The notes under the pieces are model-generated. The model saw only the letters and a program-made list of their open reading frames with translations. It made no database searches and was not told the DNA's origin. Positions 31,927 to 64,000 of a stretch of 64,000 bases of DNA are shown here, in pieces (within the stretch, counting starts at the first letter, position 1; every line of letters starts with the position of its first letter). The stretch lies in the NCBI GenBank assembly GCA_030867685.1, contig JAQOWU010000003.1, positions 1,302,001 to 1,366,000 of the forward strand, in the 5' to 3' direction. Origin of the DNA: Wickerhamiella versatilis. Its lineage: Eukaryota. Position numbers and translations under genes: made by a program.

Positions 31927-33468
31927 ATGATTCCCTTCGGTCTCTTTATGCTCGCAGTCATTCTCCAACACGAATGTGCATACTGGCTAATCATGCAACC
32001 AGTATTCAGATGGTCTATGCTCAATTCTGGACCATTGGCTATCGGCGCGTTTCTCTGGGTATTTGCAACACACAAAGTGGACTACTTCTTGAAATATGGC
32101 GCCCCGATAATGGATAAACGTATTGCGAAAACCAAGCGTCGCATCGGCAAGAATGCCACGCGCTGGGCATTGCATCGCAAGCAAAGGTTTATCGGTAATA
32201 CAACATGGGTCTATCAGTCGTTTCTAGTTATGGGATTCCTCGCTTTCCTGTTTATCCGCTTTGTAGTCAAAACCACAATTGGTTTTGTCTTATCGTCCTC
32301 TCTGTCATTGATGGGAAAGCTGAAATGCGCTTTCCTCTTGGCCCGTTGTAAGTTCATTATCATGTTTGGTGTAGTCAAATCAGTGAGTCAAGTATTGCTC
32401 GAAGAATTACATTGCTTTGCATCTATGGCAATGATCGCGATACGTGACATACCTATCACACAGGGCTACTTCGATCTTGCAATTGGTGCCTTCTGGTTAA
32501 TATACGCCGTAGCATATTTCCTTGGCTTCATTCTGCCCCCTATGCTTTATCGCGGCTTGAATACTCTTTATGAGTCACTTTGTATAGCTGTTAGCCGGAC
32601 AATTCGAATAACCGGCACTACTATCAGCTCAATCAAGTGCACCATTGTTACTGTCTGTTTATTTATGATCCAGTGTCTGTTAGCTATTCCATCAGTTATT
32701 GCATTTAGACTGATGAGGCTCACAAGAAATCTTATATTGCTACTTATAGTGCTGCCCTATATTGCTTTGAAGACAACGGCAACCGCTCTCTACACGTCGG
32801 TCAACTCGTTGGCTCGCAACATCAGCACCTGGATCAACCAATTAATCTACGATGGACGTAACAATCTTGCACAAATGCTAAGCACCACCAACAACAACGT
32901 CTACTATTCACCTTCACCATATCTACGTGAATTGGAGCAGAAAAAGCAAGAACTCAATAACAGAATTGCTGTCCTCTGCGATGAACGTGAATTTGGTGCT
33001 GCCGAAAACGTTATGCGATCGCTGGCGAATATTACAGAGGAGATACGTGCCTTGAAGAATACCGAGATTCCACGTACCGAGAATCCAGGCACCGATGAGT
33101 CTAATAAAAAGCCAAAATGGAGCTTCTCAATGAAAGACCTCATCATCATTCTCCTTTCTTCCCTAATTATCCTTCAAGCGATCAGCAACTTCAACAACAC
33201 AACTAGTCCAGTTCCTCGTGCAGAAATATACGAGAAGACAACGCTACCAGCACCGTTGTTTCAGTTCAATGCACAGGAACAATCTTGTACGCTCGACCAA
33301 ATCAAGTGGAACGTTACGCAACCAGCCGACAATGTCACCTTTAAAAGTGGCCCACCAAAGCTCGGCAGTTTCACGCGGTCTGCCATCGAATATACTCGAG
33401 ATGGCCAGCAAGTAATCGTACCTTGGAATGTTTCCAACCACTATTTCTTTGCCAGCGCATTGACCTGA
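31927..33468 (+). CDS. Orphan multi-transmembrane protein, 513 aa; no family recognised
   Basis: Intact ORF with AAAATG context ~55 bp after the TATA-like box. Several hydrophobic helices (aa ~1-290), coiled coil (LRELEQKKQELNNRI), a further TM (LIIILLSSLIILQAI) and a C-terminal segment with NxS/T sequons (NTT, NVT, NVT, NVS). Confidence 0.8.
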   Translation: MIPFGLFMLAVILQHECAYWLIMQPVFRWSMLNSGPLAIGAFLWVFATHKVDYFLKYGAPIMDKRIAKTKRRIGKNATRWALHRKQRFIGNTTWVYQSFLVMGFLAFLFIRFVVKTTIGFVLSSSLSLMGKLKCAFLLARCKFIIMFGVVKSVSQVLLEELHCFASMAMIAIRDIPITQGYFDLAIGAFWLIYAVAYFLGFILPPMLYRGLNTLYESLCIAVSRTIRITGTTISSIKCTIVTVCLFMIQCLLAIPSVIAFRLMRLTRNLILLLIVLPYIALKTTATALYTSVNSLARNISTWINQLIYDGRNNLAQMLSTTNNNVYYSPSPYLRELEQKKQELNNRIAVLCDEREFGAAENVMRSLANITEEIRALKNTEIPRTENPGTDESNKKPKWSFSMKDLIIILLSSLIILQAISNFNNTTSPVPRAEIYEKTTLPAPLFQFNAQEQSCTLDQIKWNVTQPADNVTFKSGPPKLGSFTRSAIEYTRDGQQVIVPWNVSNHYFFASALT

Positions 33469-34142
33469 GTGGTGTAACACCATATTCTAACAATTGACAA
33501 TTCAAGCACCCATTAAAAAGCCGAGAAATTTTATATTTTTCCCGCAAAAAAAAGAAAAAAAAAGAAAGCTTGACTATTTGACAACTATTGTACATGCCAC
33601 CTGACCTCTACGGGTGTGCCGGCGAAAAAAAAATTGTATATAGGAGCTCCAATTGAGTCATTTTGGATTTCCACGTTGCACCCTGCAGCATGACTCTTCC
33701 CCCCGCGGGTAACTTCTCTACCACCTAATGTACACTCTTCCAGCTTCTCTCCTCATTTTGATTCCTCAAAGCCACTTATCACAACTTTGCAAGCAGCCGT
33801 ATAGCGGTATTCAATAGATGACTCTTTGATGCTTGTTGAGTTGCTCAAAGGCAGCGAGGGAAACGAGGCAGAAGCATAAGGAAGTGATGGACTGTGGAGG
33901 TTAAGAAGGTGACTGCACTAATAATGGGAAGAGAAAGCTGCGCTAATTAGCAACAATATGGAATGAAGAGTGACACAGGAGGAGCTCACCTTAAGCCTTC
34001 ATCGCCGGCATACCTCCTCCCAGGTGGTGCAATAGCCAAATAGTGGGCAAAAAAAAAGAAAGCGGGAAAGCGGCTTAGGGTGAGTCAATTGTTAATGGTA
34101 TCACTCAGATAATGGCATGTGGGATTTCAAGGTGTACGGTTA
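33413..34142 (+). other. ~730-nt bulged rod-like RNA hairpin spanning the orphan CDS end and 3' flank
   Basis: At least 14 colinear nested helices, e.g. 33488-33498/34084-34094 (11 bp perfect), 33613-33625/34002-34014, 33465-33474/34099-34108. Non-canonical pairs are G-U on the + strand. Confidence 0.8.
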
Positions 34143-34218
34143 GAGACCAACTCTAACTGGTGAGCTACATGAAATGGACAATAATAGTTGCATATTGCAT
34201 AACGTCATAGCATTATTG

Positions 34219-34239
34219 AGTTAGTTAGTTAGTTAGTTA
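34219..34239. repeat. (AGTT)n microsatellite, ~5 copies
   Basis: agttagttagttagttagtta. Confidence 0.7.
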
Positions 34240-34547
34240 TTATTTTTTTACAATTGCATTTTATTTGACTATGTGATGCTTAAGATACGTGGAAACAGCT
34301 CTGATAGACCAATTCGTATTTGATAAGAACATACTAGTGAAAGTACATCTGCTAATCCCCTCATCCTCTGATCCTATTTCAGTGTAGCCTTCATGAGTTC
34401 TACGCCTAGTAAATTGCAAAGCATGCCAGATGTATGATAAATACGGCTCATGCTATGGTAAAAAAAGTCATCTAGCATAGATTGTATCTTTCTTAAAGAT
34501 TCTGGTTGGAACATAATAGCGTTAATTATAGTATATTCAGGATAGAA

Positions 34548-36008
34548 CTAAAGTTTATTCTTGAATGCAGGTTTGCTCAGACGCTCATAAACACCCTCAT
34601 AAGCAAAATCTGCTGGATTCGAATCGTGAATGCTTAGATTCCTTGTATCAACAAACGAAGGATTAAGATCACTGACCTTCTGAGCCCCTATGAGTCTCAT
34701 GTTCATCTCAATTTCGTCCTTCAACAGATTGATAGCTTTAACGACACCTTCTTCGCCATACGTGCTGAGAGCATATAGGAATGGTCTTCCAATTCCCACA
34801 CCCTTTGCTCCAAGGCACAATGCTTTAACAATATCTGTTCCTCGCCGAATTCCGCCGTCAACATAAACTTCAATGTGGAGCCCGCGTTTTTTCAGCTCCG
34901 GCATCACTTCTGCCAAAACTTCAATACCTGATCGGGCAAAATCTAATTGACGACCACCGTGGTTCGACAGAACTACACCATCAAGTCCCAGCTCCGCAGC
35001 CTTCACTGCATCCTCCCATCGTTGAACGCCCTTCAAGACAAGTGGTTTTTTTGTGAGACTCCGGAGGAATGGTACATCCTTCCAGCTGAGGCCCGGATCG
35101 ATGAAACTCGAGATTGCCCTCGCTGCTCCTTGACTACGGTCTGCCTCACCCCCTTCGCCCTGGACATCAGCTAAGTCTTCATCATATTTTGATCGCATGT
35201 CCTTTTCTCGCCGACCAAGTTGGGGGGCATCTACAGTCACAAAAAATCCTCGGACACCTAAACCCTCTGCGTGTCGAATAAAGTTCGCTGTCACCTTACG
35301 ATCCGCGTTAACATAAACTTGCATCCAGATAGGCTGATTAGGTTGAGCTACAGCAGCAACCTCATCTATAGAGCAGGAGGATAAAGTTGAAAGCATTTGC
35401 GTAATGCCAGCTTTATGGGCCGCTTTTGTTAGAGCTGTTTCACCTTCAGGATGGCCGAGCTTTGCCAATGCAGTAGCAGTAATATAGAACGGGGCTTTAT
35501 TGTCTGTACCGAAGAATTTAGTGGAAAAATCAACGTTAGCAACATCGATGAGAATGCGAGGCCTGAACCAGATCCGCTGATATGCGCGGTGATTTTCCCG
35601 CAATGTCATTTCATCGTCGGCACCTGAAGAATAGTAGTACCATCCAGTGCGATTTAGAGTATGTCTCGCAACCTCTTCGAAATCGTACAAGTTGTATATC
35701 TCACCAAGGGACGGCTTAGCATTGCTATTAGCCACAAGCTGCTTGTCCTCAGGCGAAAGTTCTTCCTCCTGAGCAGTAGGCCCATCCAGAGGTCCTAGCT
35801 TTTCAGAGTCATCCAACAGACGAGTCACGCTAGTTGGATGGAATTTTAGAAAATGTTTGGTAGCATCAGTTCCTGCCACCTTCAAAATCACACTAGGACC
35901 CCCAGGGTGACGTTCAAGGAAATCGGTAACATTGTACACCTGGCCTTCCACAGCTATCCAACAGTCTTCCTTTTTATTATGCTTTCCGAGCTCATCGAGG
36001 CTAATCAT
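34548..36008 (-). CDS. CYB2: Flavocytochrome b2-like L-2-hydroxyacid dehydrogenase (cyt b5 + FMN domains)
   Basis: HPGG heme motif, YYSSGADDE, VTVDAPQLGRREKD, SNHGGRQLD, DGGIRRGTD, GRPFLY. No presequence; ends NKL. Confidence 0.88.
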   Translation of the reverse strand: MISLDELGKHNKKEDCWIAVEGQVYNVTDFLERHPGGPSVILKVAGTDATKHFLKFHPTSVTRLLDDSEKLGPLDGPTAQEEELSPEDKQLVANSNAKPSLGEIYNLYDFEEVARHTLNRTGWYYYSSGADDEMTLRENHRAYQRIWFRPRILIDVANVDFSTKFFGTDNKAPFYITATALAKLGHPEGETALTKAAHKAGITQMLSTLSSCSIDEVAAVAQPNQPIWMQVYVNADRKVTANFIRHAEGLGVRGFFVTVDAPQLGRREKDMRSKYDEDLADVQGEGGEADRSQGAARAISSFIDPGLSWKDVPFLRSLTKKPLVLKGVQRWEDAVKAAELGLDGVVLSNHGGRQLDFARSGIEVLAEVMPELKKRGLHIEVYVDGGIRRGTDIVKALCLGAKGVGIGRPFLYALSTYGEEGVVKAINLLKDEIEMNMRLIGAQKVSDLNPSFVDTRNLSIHDSNPADFAYEGVYERLSKPAFKNKL

Positions 36009-58899: not shown

Positions 58900-60814
58900 T
58901 CGCGCTTCCACACAATCGAGATGCCTTATCATCTTGCGCTACCCAGGTATGACCTGCCGAGGGCCAGGACCACATGATCCCACTCTCAAGTGATAGTATC
59001 ATATTTATAGCGGACTGCTTCCCGTTCTCACTCCTGCTTCGAAATTAAGGCTCTTCATTTGTTGAATGCTGGCTCATACAGTACTAACTTAATGTTGTTT
59101 GAGCGAGCAATTCTAATAGACACCTCTCCGCAGCTCCCAACAACGGATGGGACAAAATTCACCGTCTACCATTATTGAAGAGATGAAGCGAGAAGCCAAA
59201 GCCAGGAGCAAAAAGCTGGGTGTCATGGGCCCACAAAACGAAACACCCAAACTGGATTCGCTTAAATCCGCGCGCGTATCTCTCTTCCATTGGCTATACT
59301 CCACTATTCTACCGTCTACCCCTGTATTACTGATACTTATACTTCAGTATTGATACAAATCAAAAATTAACGCAAACAATCCTTTGAATACTTCTGACTA
59401 CTGCCTGATTCGTATCATATGTTCTTCACAAGATGAGGCGTAAGTCTTCGCTCAATGCGTATTCCTGCTTCGTGTTGCGTTCCACAAACACCAATGAATC
59501 AAAATTCATAGCAAAATGATCCGAACAAATATCGAAAAATGCAAACGATACGGAATAAATCAAAACAAAAAGGAAAATCTCAGTATCACCTGAGTATCTG
59601 ACTTCTTGACGACAACATCCGACACAGACATACCATTCTTACTGAGGACTACTGTCTATACCAAACAAAAATTGCTCGATATCATCTCAAGGTCCTCCCT
59701 GAGGCTCTTGAGTTTGGTCAGCGGGTATTTTGTTTTGGTATTCACGGAGCTTTCCTCTCTCGTGTGCCTAATTTGGGTATAGTGCAAACTCAGATACCTC
59801 TCAAATGATGCAAGAGAACAATCAGACAGAAACATGTCCAATATCGGTCAGATACATCCGAAATCTGTTGTATCTCCTCACTCCGACAACGGTGGAAAGC
59901 CATCCACAAAGAAATCCTAAATCGCCAGTATCCGGAAACAATATATGTGATCCTTTTACTGGTTTCAGGGGTTCTTTGACCGGATGGCAGGATACTTTTT
60001 GTCAACTGCTTTAGCAGAGTAGAGGTTTCACTCAGATCTTGGATACACACAAGCGAATCAAAACTTCAAAAATATCAATTGGATATCTTCGGTTCATTGC
60101 CGACTCAAGTCCATTCTGAACATTGTGCAGAGAAGACACATTGATATTAAGAGATTCTGACAATATGAAGAAAACATTGCTCAAAGCACTCTCAAAGTTT
60201 CCTGTAAACTCTTGAATTGGGCTAAAGGGTCAATTTTTTTTTCTATTAGCAGATTTTCCGTTTATCTTTTGCCTTCTTTGGCTGTAGCAACGAACCAAGC
60301 ATATCCCAAATGGAATTCTCCTCAAAAAACAAGAAAGAGATACGTCTATTGTTTGCCAAGTATATCTGAATCTGCTGCATCTCCTCACTCCGACAAATGG
60401 TGGAAAGCCATCCACAAAGAAATCCTATCGCCAGTATCCGGAAACAATACATGTGATCCTTTTGCTGGTTCAGGTTTTCTTTGACCGGGCGGCAAGATAC
60501 CTTTTGTCGACTGCTTCAGCAGAGTAGAGGTCTCGCTCAGATTTTGGATACACACAGGAATTTGGCTGTCTCACACTGGTATTCAAAAAATGTCAATTGA
60601 ATATGTCTGGTTGCCGAAACGTCAGACCCACTCGACGGAGGTATATGCATGTATACTGAGAGTTACTGGCCATATGGAGACAAAATCACTCGATATCTTC
60701 TCAAAGCTTTCCATAAAGCGTCTGAGTTTGATAAAAAGATTGAATTTTGTATCTCCATTTACAGGAATCTCTTTTATCCTTTGCCTTCTTTGGTTGTGAC
60801 GGCAAAGACATCAC

Positions 60815-61365
60815 CTTGCATCAAAAGAATATCAACTAAAACAATCAAAAAAAGTCAACCAAGAACAAGCAAAATAATTTCAATCAAAATCATTTCAATC
60901 AAATACAAAAAAAAATCAACCAAGAACAATCATTTCAATCAAAAACAACAAAAAGATATCAATCAAGAACAATCAAAATCATTTCAATCAAAAACAAAAA
61001 AAACATCAATCAAGAACAATCCAAAAAATATCAACCAAGAACAATCAAAATCATCTCAATCAAAAACAAAAAAAAGTCAATCAATCAAAAACAATAAAAA
61101 GATCTCAATCAAGAACAATCAAAAAAAATATCAATCAAATACAAAAAAAGATCAACCAAGAACAATTATTTCAATCAAAAACAAAAAAAAAGTCAATCAA
61201 GAGGAACCAAAAAAATATCAACCAAGAACAATCAAAATCATCTCAATCAAAAACAAAAAAAATGTCAACCAAGAACAATTAATTAAAAAAAAATCAAAAT
61301 CATTTCCATCAAAAAAAATCACAATCAAAAGCAATCAAAAAAATGTCAAACAAAACAATCCAACC
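60815..61365. repeat. A/C-rich degenerate minisatellite (CAAGAACAATCAAAA / ATCATTTCAATCAAAAAC units)
   Basis: Seen directly; very little G on the + strand. Confidence 0.9.
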
Positions 61366-62279
61366 AGTCTCCTCACTTCGACAACGGTAGAAAGCCATCC
61401 ACAAAGAGATGCTATGTCGCCAGCATCTGGAAGCAATGCATGTGATCCTTTTGCTCAGGGATTCTTTGACCGGGCGGCTAGATACCTTTTGTCAACTGCT
61501 TTAGCAGATTAGAGGTTTCACTCATATTGGATACACACAAGGGAATCCATCAATCAAAAATATCAATTGGATATCTTTGGTTCATTGCTGACTCCAGTTC
61601 ATTCGGAACATTGTGCAGAGAAGGCACATTGATATTAAGGGATTCTGACAATATGAAGAAAAATCACTCGATATCTTCTCAAAGTTTTCCATCAAACTTT
61701 TGATCAAAAGGTTGAGTTTTATGTCTATATTCACAGGAATCTCTTTTATCATTTGCCTTCTTTGGTCGAAGCAACAAGCCAAGCATATCTCAAATGGTAT
61801 TCGCCCATCTATTGTATGACAAGCATATCTGAATCTGCTGTGTCCCCTTACTCCGACAAATGGTGGAAAGCCATCCACAAAGAAATCCTATCGCCAGTAT
61901 CTGGAAACAACATATATGATCCTTTTGCTGGTTTCAGGGTTTCTTTGACCGGGCGGCAGGATACCTTTTGTCAACTGCTTCAGCAGAGTAGAGGTTTCGC
62001 TCAGATTTTGGATACAGATATTTGGCTATCTCACACTGGTATTCAAAAAATGTCAATTGAATATGTCTGGTTGCCGAAAAGTCAGACCCACTCGACGGAG
62101 GTATACGCATGTATACTGAGAGTACTGGCCATATGGAGACAAAATCACTCGATATCTTCTCAAAGCTTTCCATAAAGCGTCTGAGTTTGATCAAAAGATT
62201 GAATTTTGTTTCTCCACAGGAATCTCTCTATCCTTTACCTTTTTTGGTTGTGGCGGCAAAGACACAGAAAAGCCATCAC

Positions 62280-62608
62280 CTTGCATCAAAAAATAAACAG
62301 AAACCAATCAAAATAATTTCCATCAAAACCCAAAAAAATGTCAATTAAAATCATTTCAATCAAAAAAAATCGACCAAGAACAATCATTTCAATCAAAAAC
62401 AAAAAAAGATATCAATCAAAAACAAAAAAAATATCAATCAAGAACAATCAAAAAAAATGTCAACCAAGAACAATCAAAAGAAAATGTCAACCAAGAACAA
62501 TCAATCAAAAAAAATCATAATCAAGAACGATCAAAATCATTTCAATCAAAAACAAAAAAACTGTCAATCAAGAACAATCAAAAAATGTCAAACAAAACAA
62601 TCCAATCA
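62280..62608. repeat. Second A/C-rich minisatellite tract
   Basis: Same units as 60815-61365, shorter. Confidence 0.9.
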
Positions 62609-63849
62609 GTCTCCTCATTCGACAACGGTGGAAGCCATTCACAAAGAAATGCTGTGTCGCCAGCATCTGGAAGCAATAAAATATGATATCCTCTTGCTGG
62701 TTTCAGATTCCTTTGACTGGGCGGCTAGATACCTTTTGTCAACTGCTTTAGCAGATTAGAGGTTTCACTCAGATCTTGGATACACACAAGGAAATCCATC
62801 AATCAAAAGTGTCAATTGGATATCTTTGGTTCATTGCTGACTCCAGTTCATTCTGAACATTGTGCAGGGAAGACACATTGATATTAAGAGATTCTGACAA
62901 TATGAAGAAAACATTGCTCAAAGCACTCTCGAAGTTTCCTGTGAAGTCTTGAATTCGGCTGAAAGGTTACTTTTTTTTCTATTAGCAGATTTTCCATTTA
63001 TCTTTTGCCTTCTTTGGTCGTAGCAACGAACCAAATATATCTCAAATGGTATTCTCCTCAAAAAAACAAGAAAGAGATACGTCTATTGTATGCCAAGTAT
63101 ATCTGAATCTGCTGTATCTCCTCACTCCGACAAATGGTGGAAAGCCATCCACAAAGAAATCCTATCGCCAGTATCCGGAAACAACATATGTGATCCTTTT
63201 GCTGGTTTCAGGGTTTCTTTGACCGGGCGGTAGGATACCTTTTGTCAACTGCTTCAGCAGAGTAGAGGTTTGGCCCAGATTTTGAATACACACAGGAATT
63301 TGGCTATCTCACACTAAATGTGGTATTCAAAAGAATCATCGAAATAATCATTATTTCAAAAAATGTCAATTGAATATGTCTGGTTGTCGAAAAGTCAGAC
63401 CCACTCGACGGAGGTATATGCATGTATACTGAGAGTTACTGGCCATATGGAGACAAAATCACTCGATATCTTCTCAAAGCTTTCCATAAAGCGTCTGAGT
63501 TTGATAAAAAGATTGAATTTTGTATCTCCATTTACAGGAATCTCTTATCCTTTACCTTCTTTGGTTGTGGCGGCAAATCAGACATATGTTTCAAATGGCG
63601 TTATATTCAAGAGAACCATTAAGGACAAGAGTCCTATCAGAACTCTGTCGTATATCCGAAACATTTGATGAAATTCATCCACTGTATCTCTTCGCATATT
63701 CACAAGGAAACCCTACGCTACTCGTATTCAGAAGAAACTGATATAATCGTACTGATATCAGGAATTCTTTTTGATGAGATTGCGATATGTTCTCTGTTGA
63801 CTGCTCCGAGATAGCAGACCATTTCTCAAAGATACGGAGAAGCCACCAC

Positions 63850-64000
63850 CTTGCAACAAAAAATTAACAAAAACCAATCAAAAGAATATCAACTAAAACA
63901 ATGAACAAAAATTCAACCAAGAACAATCAAAAAAATATCAATCAAAAGCAATCAAAAATGTTAATCAAGAACAATCATGTCAATCAAGAACAATCAAAAT
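63850..64000. repeat. Third A/C-rich minisatellite tract (truncated by window end)
   Basis: Same units, preceded by the same CACCTTGCA entry sequence as the other two tracts. Confidence 0.88.

Follow-up and report, generated by a model that had tools for sequence, protein, structure and literature searches.

In the window, the whole 64-kb stretch of DNA that was analysed, two convergent genes are separated by an intergenic gap of 1.08 kb, which is far longer than the neighbouring gaps. The upstream gene, P0001 (31927..33468, + strand), encodes a multi-pass membrane-like protein of 513 amino acids and is an orphan: no Pfam family is found, the only match among 5.8 billion clustered proteins and 1.84 billion representatives is to itself, none of the 52 pattern matches in a metagenome scan was confirmed and the Protein Atlas gives no usable match. 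It is expressed in both RNA runs that we used (X21 and X24, from two independent studies and from strains other than that of the window). The 28 strain SNPs listed for this ORF comprise 14 synonymous and 14 non-synonymous changes. The facing gene, P0002 (34548..36008, − strand), encodes a homologue of flavocytochrome b2, the FMN-dependent L-lactate dehydrogenase (Pfam FMN_dh, 4.9e-118, plus Cyt-b5; PDB entries 1FCB and 1LTD at E ~1e-151). Its protein relatives P0004 and P0005 are 98% and 87% identical, and the closest named homologues only ~60%. Among 41 loci found for this protein in a metagenome scan the best is 69% identical, so no close relative is present there.

An imperfect inverted repeat starts within the orphan ORF and extends into the gap. 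From the fold and the alignment of the arms, the 5′ arm spans 33413..33795 (383 nt), the apex 33796..33829 and the 3′ arm 33830..34142 (313 nt), all on the + strand. The outer 5′ arm holds the end of the ORF, with its last 56 nt (the last 18 codons) and the TGA stop. The 5′ arm and the reverse complement of the 3′ arm are ~82% identical over the aligned columns, with 162 gap columns. In the minimum free energy (MFE) fold of 33400–34160 (+ strand) the region adopts one long interrupted hairpin of 205 long-range pairs, which run from 33419/34134 inward to 33795/33830 and leave 33796–33829 as the apex loop. The helices are at most 14 bp long, mostly 2–8 bp, with many bulges between them, and the stop codon (33466–33468) lies inside a 9 bp helix (33465–33473/34100–34108). 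A large internal loop in the 5′ arm holds an A-rich tract (33546..33569), of which the last 15 nt (33555–33569) are repeated identically in direct orientation in the 3′ arm at 34049–34063 (15/15 by blastn). The MFE structure also contains a local stem of 9 bp with a 5-nt loop (34137..34159, + strand), which sits at the outer end of the 3′ arm and is part of the noncoding transcript described below.

The initial annotation had described 14 colinear, nested helices over 33413–34142, and all of these are present. Thirteen occur in the MFE fold exactly or within 1 nt, while helix 33413–33421/34134–34142 shows the outermost one in another register that is also valid. The position of the stop codon within a helix of the fold was correctly recognized, as was the concentration of bulges on the 5′ arm, which is due to this arm being ~70 nt longer than its partner. 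Built from a succession of short helices, the repeat becomes visible only by folding or global alignment, and a blastn comparison of the window with its own minus strand did not recover the arms at E ≤ 10. No second copy of the element was found by blastn in the 64-kb window, and the sequence has no direct repeat (target-site duplication) flanking 33413 and 34142. The DNA contig depth over the hairpin is ~2–2.5 times that over the b2 gene, depths not being copy numbers.

A rod of ~720 nt is thus able to form. Its + strand folds with −255 kcal/mol and z = −8.8 against 20 dinucleotide shuffles, and the segment 33413–34142 with −246.4 kcal/mol and z = −6.8 against 60; the − strand reaches z = −3.9 and −4.9 in two such runs. 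These values have to be read with the caution that any DNA palindrome yields a very negative folding z-score. When 2528 centres throughout the window were scanned for a palindrome score, the region 33775–33825 reached z ~5.4, equalled only by a low-complexity tandem-repeat zone at 59.6–64 kb, where the peaks at 60.2 and 63.5 kb are tandem direct repeats with A/T runs instead of hairpins.

The deviations within the helices had been taken as G-U pairs on the + strand, and hence as a mark of selection on RNA structure rather than of a decaying DNA duplication. A weak bias in this direction exists (19 G-U pairs on the + strand versus 16 on the − strand; 11 wobble-type arm mismatches versus 8), yet it does not amount to a distinctive signature. 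The energy gap between the strands (+ minus −) is −12.3 kcal/mol, compared with −6.2 ± 16 kcal/mol in a simulation of neutral decay, of which 37% of 70 runs were as extreme or more so. The G-U counts, the mismatch counts and the simulation together rule out strand asymmetry as proof of RNA selection, and the palindrome carries no signature of strand-specific structural selection. For the form 33573–34200 the z-scores are −5.2 (+) and −2.7 (−), and the inner hairpin is no better on the + strand than on the − strand (−93.8 versus −96.6).

The poly(A) site of the orphan mRNA lies at 33511..33519 (+ strand), with cleavage at ~33519, 51 nt past the stop codon. In X21, eight reads carry A-only non-templated ends from 33519 (median 86 nt, agreement 1), and in X24 − oriented reads are enriched at 33310–33491, the read-orientation signature of a 3′ end. 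The RNA depth collapses to ~5% in the bin 33492–33582, where the DNA contig depth falls only to ~1/3. Consequently, the bulk mRNA ends ~580 nt before the partner of the stop codon at 34100–34108 and includes no more of the 5′ arm than its outermost ~100 nt; of the two partners of the stop-codon helix (33465–33473 and 34100–34108) it contains the first and lacks the second. The sequestration of the stop codon in cis that was central to the initial annotation is at odds with these 3′ ends, and the stop codon is probably not hidden by the repeat. As the bin 33492–33582 is partly masked and diverged between strains, rare read-through RNAs with both arms could be present, and 27 X21 reads that extend upstream of 33586 into the A-tract suggest that a long isoform may exist.

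Downstream of this site a second RNA, transcript B (33673..34210, + strand, ~0.5 kb), is seen in the poly(A)+ library. Its 5′ ends, which are presumably capped, are marked in X24 by template-switch adaptor letters in + orientation; 25 reads place one at 33673 and 7 reads the other at 33720. The 3′ terminus is close to 34179–34219. X21 covers the transcript at a depth of ~100 and X24 at up to 123; the depth stays at ~100 across 33674–34128 and is 0–6 at 34220–34492, so carry-over of genomic DNA is low. The abundance equals that of the neighbouring mRNAs in two studies and exceeds that of many cryptic transcripts. Transcription of the + strand crosses the apex and the entire 3′ arm. Because the 5′ ends lie inside the 5′ arm, the main form (33673–~34210) holds only the inner 120–140 nt of that arm; a minor form starts further upstream and reaches to at least ~33545, the junction bin being partly masked. 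Transcript B consists of the inner hairpin 33675–33954 and an ~250-nt tail from the outer 3′ arm, and its main form folds with −168.5 kcal/mol (z = −2.45; one of 100 shuffles was equally good). In the bulk, the reads fit two RNAs rather than the single transcript over both arms that had been assumed. The initial annotation had named as fatal to its model an mRNA that ends before 34000 with no other + strand transcript over both arms; the early end was found, and so was such a transcript, covering both arms in part.

No splice joints were found over either transcript in the RNA reads, and the longest + strand ORF in transcript B is 29 amino acids. The covariance models of Rfam 15 (covering SRP, RNase P/MRP, snRNA, snoRNA, telomerase RNA and ribozymes) gave no match at the gathering score in the window and none at E ≤ 1 in 33300–34400, so that the family search proposed initially matched nothing; ARAGORN found no tRNA. 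An A9 run followed by the TATA-like motif TATATAG (33637–33643) occupies 33625..33643 on the + strand, 30–36 nt upstream of 33673. It is found in the 5′ arm only and, judged from the sequence, is a putative promoter of transcript B. We also considered a duplex in trans between the 3′ end of the mRNA and the noncoding RNA and rejected it, the gain of −11.3 kcal/mol being close to that with shuffled partners (−10.1 ± 4.1 kcal/mol). Any function of transcript B is putative at most, and we infer that it has none.

Variation between strains leans suggestively towards keeping the fold. Introducing the 12 natural SNPs that a single other haplotype carries shifts the MFE by −6.6 kcal/mol, compared with +10.7 ± 5.7 kcal/mol for 150 matched random SNP sets, none of which is as low. 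The direction of mutation is not fixed in this test, and an even split between the lineages leaves the result only ~1.2 s.d. from neutral, so it is suggestive and not significant. Of six SNPs at paired sites, polarized by hand from the partner bases, four lead to G-U pairs on the + strand and two break helix-end pairs only, while 7/13 SNPs fall in unpaired positions, which make up 37% of all positions. Seven SNPs cluster at 33860–33936 within the hairpin, and the strain SNP 34156 A>T would break one pair of the local stem 34137–34159. The orphan and b2 metagenome scans provided no relatives for a covariation test of the hairpin.

On balance, we consider it probable that the locus goes back to an old inverted duplication that has since eroded and become an independent noncoding transcription unit of ~0.5 kb, the palindrome decaying and the mRNA of the gene ending before the hairpin can close. 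The duplication itself is inferred, and would have taken in the last 56 coding bases of the orphan, its stop codon and the region downstream. Today the orphan mRNA is cleaved and polyadenylated at ~33519. The other RNA, polyadenylated and noncoding, has its start at 33673 or 33720, past the A-run and the TATA-like motif, and ends at ~34180–34219; the nucleosome-free A-tracts of the decaying duplication would drive it. This RNA can form only the inner, heavily bulged hairpin 33675–33954 with helices of 2–8 bp, while the full 720-nt rod and the pairing of the stop codon would be restricted to rare read-through molecules. The palindrome is most likely not maintained by selection on RNA structure, and the locus would be at most a weak or former hairpin-RNA gene.

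Several other readings of the same data have to be weighed. In the initial model, the mRNA continues through 34142 and an ~730-nt rod in cis hides the 3′ UTR together with the stop codon and so modulates termination, decay or localization. The strong + strand fold of the full stretch (z −6.8 to −8.8), the 9 bp helix around the stop codon and the X21 reads that enter the A-tract are in its favour, but the poly(A) tails at 33519, the loss of RNA depth beyond that of the DNA contig in 33492–33582, the separate starts of transcript B at 33673 and 33720 and the absence of a strand-specific selection signature make it very improbable. Selection could instead act on transcript B as a structured lncRNA, for example a protein scaffold, that is unrelated to the orphan and appears palindromic only through the way in which its fold was built. 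This agrees with the defined ends and robust expression of the RNA in both studies, with the stronger + strand fold of 33573–34200 and with SNPs that tend to spare the structure. It is nevertheless quite unlikely given the z-score of only −2.45 for the major isoform, the lack of an Rfam match or of relatives for covariation in the orphan and b2 metagenome scans, and the seven SNPs clustered inside the hairpin. There is a similarly small chance that the element acts at the level of DNA, as a foldback or MITE relic or as a cruciform-prone palindrome with a role in replication or in termination between convergent genes, which would make the RNA incidental. Both strands fold significantly, as those of any DNA inverted repeat would, and the convergent gap is unusually long. 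Against this stand the single copy in the 64-kb window, the missing target-site duplication and the overlap with the last 18 codons of the ORF; moreover, arms that are ~82% identical, differ by many indels and are separated by a 34-nt spacer would be unlikely to extrude a cruciform.

Hairpin-RNA (hpRNA) loci are expected to be born from palindromes that take in a part of the gene they presumably target. The locus could be an active one, in which dsRNA from read-through or long-isoform molecules is cut by a budding-yeast Dicer and siRNAs from the outer 3′ arm, antisense to the stop codon and 3′ UTR of the orphan, silence it via Argonaute. The palindrome does contain part of the presumed target, the + strand is transcribed, the natural SNPs tend to spare pairing and the adjoining orphan evolves fast. 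A precedent is provided by Naumovozyma castellii, where palindromic loci giving hairpin transcripts are the most prolific sources of siRNA (PMC7528652); PMC10405411 contributes nothing on natural hairpins. We regard an active locus as unlikely, however, as bulge-rich helices of at most 14 bp and mostly 2–8 bp make poor dsRNA, the outer 5′ arm is missing from the main transcript, the RNA builds up to mRNA-like depth instead of being consumed and RNAi genes are patchily distributed in Saccharomycotina (PMC5499181; PMC12663654). A more specific form, to which we assign little probability, is a young to middle-aged hairpin-RNA gene that arose by inverted duplication of the 3′ end of the fast-evolving, strain-hypervariable orphan membrane-protein gene and now restrains it, either through dsRNA or through small RNAs that derive from the outer part of the 3′ arm.

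The closest known kind would be the palindromic hairpin loci of RNAi-competent budding yeasts. The initial annotation knew of no standard yeast RNA class of this form that overlaps a CDS end, but in N. castellii genomic inverted repeats are transcribed into stem-loop RNA (PMC7528652). The present locus resembles these siRNA loci in being a transcribed genomic inverted repeat of a budding yeast that gives a noncoding, polyadenylated stem-loop RNA (PMC7528652), and the hairpin expected of a palindromic siRNA locus is found (205 long-range pairs, z −6.8 to −8.8), with a longest helix of only 14 bp. It differs in the strong erosion of its arms and in a main transcript that takes in only part of the 5′ arm. 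Drosophila hpRNAs and young plant MIR genes are hairpin-RNA genes that arose by inverted duplication of a target, with proven Dicer products and target repression. Like them, the locus has an inverted copy of a stretch of a fast-evolving neighbour gene as one of its arms, a geometry from which antisense small RNAs against this gene are only predicted. Yeast SUT, CUT and XUT RNAs are intergenic noncoding transcripts that start at nucleosome-free poly(dA:dT). Transcript B is likewise short, unspliced, polyadenylated and noncoding, and starts shortly past A-tracts in a 3′ intergenic region, but differs in being set within a 720-nt palindrome and as abundant as the neighbouring mRNAs. The duplex in a 3′ UTR in cis that was envisaged initially corresponds to the IRAlu-type inverted-repeat hairpins of mammalian mRNAs (PMC4378195). 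Unlike these, the orphan mRNA stops at 33519, ahead of the second arm. The ADAR and paraspeckle machinery is not known in yeasts.

As a decaying duplication and nothing more, the locus would be a neat but ordinary case of how an inverted duplication adjoining a gene turns into a new noncoding transcription unit. Should the hairpin-RNA-gene reading be true, it would be a yeast counterpart of the fly hpRNA suppressors of selfish genes, and the tendency of the SNPs to spare the structure would mean that the + strand fold is still under selection. The discovery of small RNAs or of read-through molecules would make the locus an example of a hairpin regulator emerging from the gene that it targets, beside an orphan with strong strain-to-strain variation and in a yeast lineage that has received little study.

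The orphan reading frame (31927–33468, + strand; P0001, 513 aa) ends in a TGA stop codon at 33466–33468, and the gap that separates it from the convergent flavocytochrome b2 gene is 1.08 kb, well above most gaps of this compact window. RNAfold folds 33400–34160 of the + strand into a single interrupted hairpin whose 205 long-range pairs are distributed over 36 helices of 1–14 bp, the outermost pair being 33419/34134 and the innermost 33795/33830. All 14 helices listed in the initial annotation are present, 13 of them at the stated positions or one base away and the first in an alternative register. Greater stability than that of shuffled sequences is found on both strands: −255 kcal/mol (z = −8.8, 20 shuffles) for this + strand segment, −246.4 kcal/mol (z = −6.8, 60 shuffles) for 33413–34142 on the + strand, and z = −3.9 and −4.9 in two shuffle runs for the − strand fold. 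When the 5′ arm (33413–33795) is globally aligned to the reverse-complemented 3′ arm (33830–34142), 234 columns match, 50 mismatch and 162 contain a gap, corresponding to 82% identity over aligned columns. When 2528 centres across the window were scanned with the same arm-alignment score, the locus stood at z ≈ 5.4, and an equal score was reached only in the tandem-repeat, A/T-run zone at 59.6–64 kb. The palindrome is confirmed as real and beyond chance. No further copy of the element was found within the 64 kb, and no target-site duplication was seen in its flanks.

The 59.6–64 kb zone was rejected as a second palindrome because its repeats are direct and not inverted. It is a tandem array (59600–64000) of three to four units of ∼1.25–1.5 kb, up to 95–100% identical in parts, each with a very A-rich CAA/AAT-type internal repeat at a spacing of ∼25 nt and GC down to 22% (45.7% in the window); the AT skew reaches +0.6, and the ORF 60649–61512 within the array belongs to no Pfam family. 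Within the arms of the palindrome, an identical 15 nt A-rich stretch occupies mirrored positions (33555–33569 and 34049–34063) in direct, not inverted, orientation and generates an A-rich/A-rich internal loop; it may have arisen through inversion of a small internal segment or through A-tracts growing in parallel.

Transcription was followed by mapping one RNA run from each of two studies, the random-primed, paired run X21 and the single-read poly(A) run X24, together with the DNA contig sets X5 and X12, to 32400–35100. Neither RNA run derives from the strain of the window, and both behave as unstranded. Summed depth over the orphan mRNA is ∼130–160 (X21) and ∼75–100 (X24) up to 33400. Eight X21 reads continue as pure A after 33519 (median 86 nt), and X24 has a surplus of inward-pointing (−) reads at 33310–33491, as expected at an oligo-dT-primed end. 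In 33492–33582, a bin that is partly masked (33536–33572) and contains indel differences between strains, RNA depth drops to ∼5 (X21) and ∼3 (X24); DNA contig depth also drops there, but only to about one third. A second transcribed block extends from ∼33586 to ∼34219, with summed depth rising from ∼45 to ∼108 (X21) and from ∼23 to ∼123 (X24). At 34220–34492 the depth is merely 0–12 overall (0–6 in X21), so that carry-over of genomic DNA is small, and the b2 transcript stops short of the palindrome. No splice joints were found among the RNA reads in 32400–35100. The bulk picture is one of two + strand RNAs, an orphan mRNA that ends 51 nt past the stop codon and a separate noncoding RNA of ∼0.5 kb. 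The palindrome is real and transcribed, but the ∼730 nt rod proposed to sequester the stop codon is not the main RNA species.

In X24, extra letters stand directly before 33673 (25 reads) and 33720 (7 reads). Their consensus, in sense on the + strand, ends in ...ACATGGG, which we take to be the end of the SMART template-switching oligonucleotide. In this orientation the adaptor marks both positions as 5′ ends of + strand RNAs, and since the preceding bases are not GGG, adaptor strand invasion is unlikely. Both ends are probably start sites of capped RNAs and not products of processing. An A9 run (33625–33633) and TATATAG (33637–33643), 30–36 nt upstream of 33673, form a putative promoter, and the arm alignment yields no counterpart of this segment in the 3′ arm. 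In X21, 27 reads that reach 33586 extend beyond it on the upstream side by a median of 41 nt, with sequence particular to that strain, and a minor longer form therefore starts at or before ∼33545. At the right-hand end, X24 shows a surplus of inward (−) reads at 34038–34219, as at the 3′ end of the orphan mRNA, and X21 molecules terminate at 34179. A (GTTA)n-like microsatellite followed by a T-run lies at 34210–34251, where the depth of the noncoding RNA falls to zero and the DNA contigs of both strains break.

The noncoding RNA holds the apex, the entire 3′ arm and only the inner 120–140 nt of the 5′ arm. Folded alone, it reaches −168.5 kcal/mol (z = −2.45, one of 100 shuffles being as good), with a hairpin part at 33675–33954 consisting of helices of 2–8 bp. 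Just outside the palindrome, its 3′ part contains a clean 9 bp stem with a 5 nt loop (34137–34159), one pair of which would be disrupted by the strain SNP 34156 A>T. The longest ORFs in 33500–34260 encode 29 (+) and 32 (−) amino acids. An Rfam match for the hairpin was sought in vain, with no family reaching the gathering score anywhere in the window or E ≤ 1 within 33300–34400; a tRNA search also found none.

Deviations of G–U type on the + strand had been taken as a sign of selection on RNA structure, a reading that four tests do not bear out. Arm mismatches of wobble type number 11 on the + strand and eight on the − strand, the folds contain 19 (+) and 16 (−) G–U pairs, and the inner hairpin gains no stability on the + strand (−93.8, against −96.6 on the − strand). 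In 70 runs of a simulation that lets a perfect inverted copy of the 5′ arm decay neutrally, the + minus − energy difference is −6.2 ± 16.0 kcal/mol, compared with −12.3 observed; 37% of runs are at least as negative, and 53% show a + strand G–U excess of at least three.

Strain differences amount to 11 letters and four gap letters for X12 (33573–34209) and seven letters and one gap letter for X5 (33613–34209). Unpaired positions account for 37% of 33413–34142 and for seven of the 13 SNPs within it. The six at paired positions were polarised by hand from the partner bases: four (33436, 33612, 33860 and 33914) swap a Watson–Crick and a + strand G–U pair, while two (33863 and 34044) disrupt only a helix-end pair. 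Together, the 12 SNPs carried by the X12 haplotype stabilise the fold by 6.6 kcal/mol, whereas 150 matched random sets destabilise it by 10.7 ± 5.7 kcal/mol, none being as low. As derived alleles may sit on either haplotype, the value expected under neutrality is close to zero instead of +10.7, and the observed one lies only ∼1.2 sd from it. The SNPs are thus a weak counter-signal, suggestive only, for preservation of structure. The listed indels are all confined to loops or homopolymer runs, which both models predict. Neither the strand tests nor the SNPs demonstrate that the fold is under selection.

The orphan protein has no Pfam family, matches only itself among 5.8 billion clustered proteins and in a HMMER scan of 1.84 billion representatives, and has no usable match in the Protein Atlas. 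It is expressed, and its 28 best-supported strain differences comprise 14 synonymous and 14 non-synonymous changes. With non-synonymous sites about three times as numerous as synonymous ones, this fits a real, fast-evolving gene. Two contig versions of it, each present in X5 as well as in X12, differ at 22 of 287–294 bases (33112–33405), a pattern that could reflect heterozygosity, introgression or a paralogue. The b2 side (34252–35100) has 0–1 differences per 849 bases, in contrast to the hypervariable orphan (32400–33470). The closest named relatives of the b2 homologue (34548–36008, − strand) share only ∼60% identity with it and belong to early-branching yeasts and filamentous ascomycetes. 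Its ORF starts with the heme domain, and the alignment to the mature S. cerevisiae chain begins at residue 6–11; as called, the ORF therefore has no mitochondrial presequence. The C-terminal NKL resembles a peroxisomal PTS1 tripeptide. Other nearby genes are of the ordinary housekeeping type (ChAPs, ribosomal L10e, a thioredoxin-domain protein, a kinase and a cyclophilin).

Hairpin-RNA genes of flies and plants are born by inverted duplication, and a palindrome containing part of its neighbour gene may resemble such a birth. We consider it somewhat probable that the locus represents an inverted duplication of the 3′ end of the orphan that is decaying and now forms an independent noncoding transcription unit. 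The last ∼100 nt of the orphan mRNA are complementary to the outer 3′ arm in the noncoding RNA. Cofolding the two gives a net gain of only −11.3 kcal/mol, close to that of shuffled mRNA ends (−10.1 ± 4.1), and a special trans duplex thus has no thermodynamic support. Palindromic loci with hairpin transcripts in the budding yeast N. castellii are described as among the most prolific siRNA sources (PMC7528652), and the present locus has their geometry and is transcribed as they are. Such loci are defined by small RNAs, by RNAi genes in the genome and by a single transcript covering both arms in full. Two further papers describe a patchy distribution of Dicer and Argonaute in Saccharomycotina (PMC5499181) and the absence of detectable Dicer from many yeast proteomes (PMC12663654). 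The eroded helices and mRNA-like abundance of the noncoding RNA argue against efficient dicing. That the locus actively regulates the orphan through hairpin RNA is rather improbable; if true, it would be the interesting outcome.
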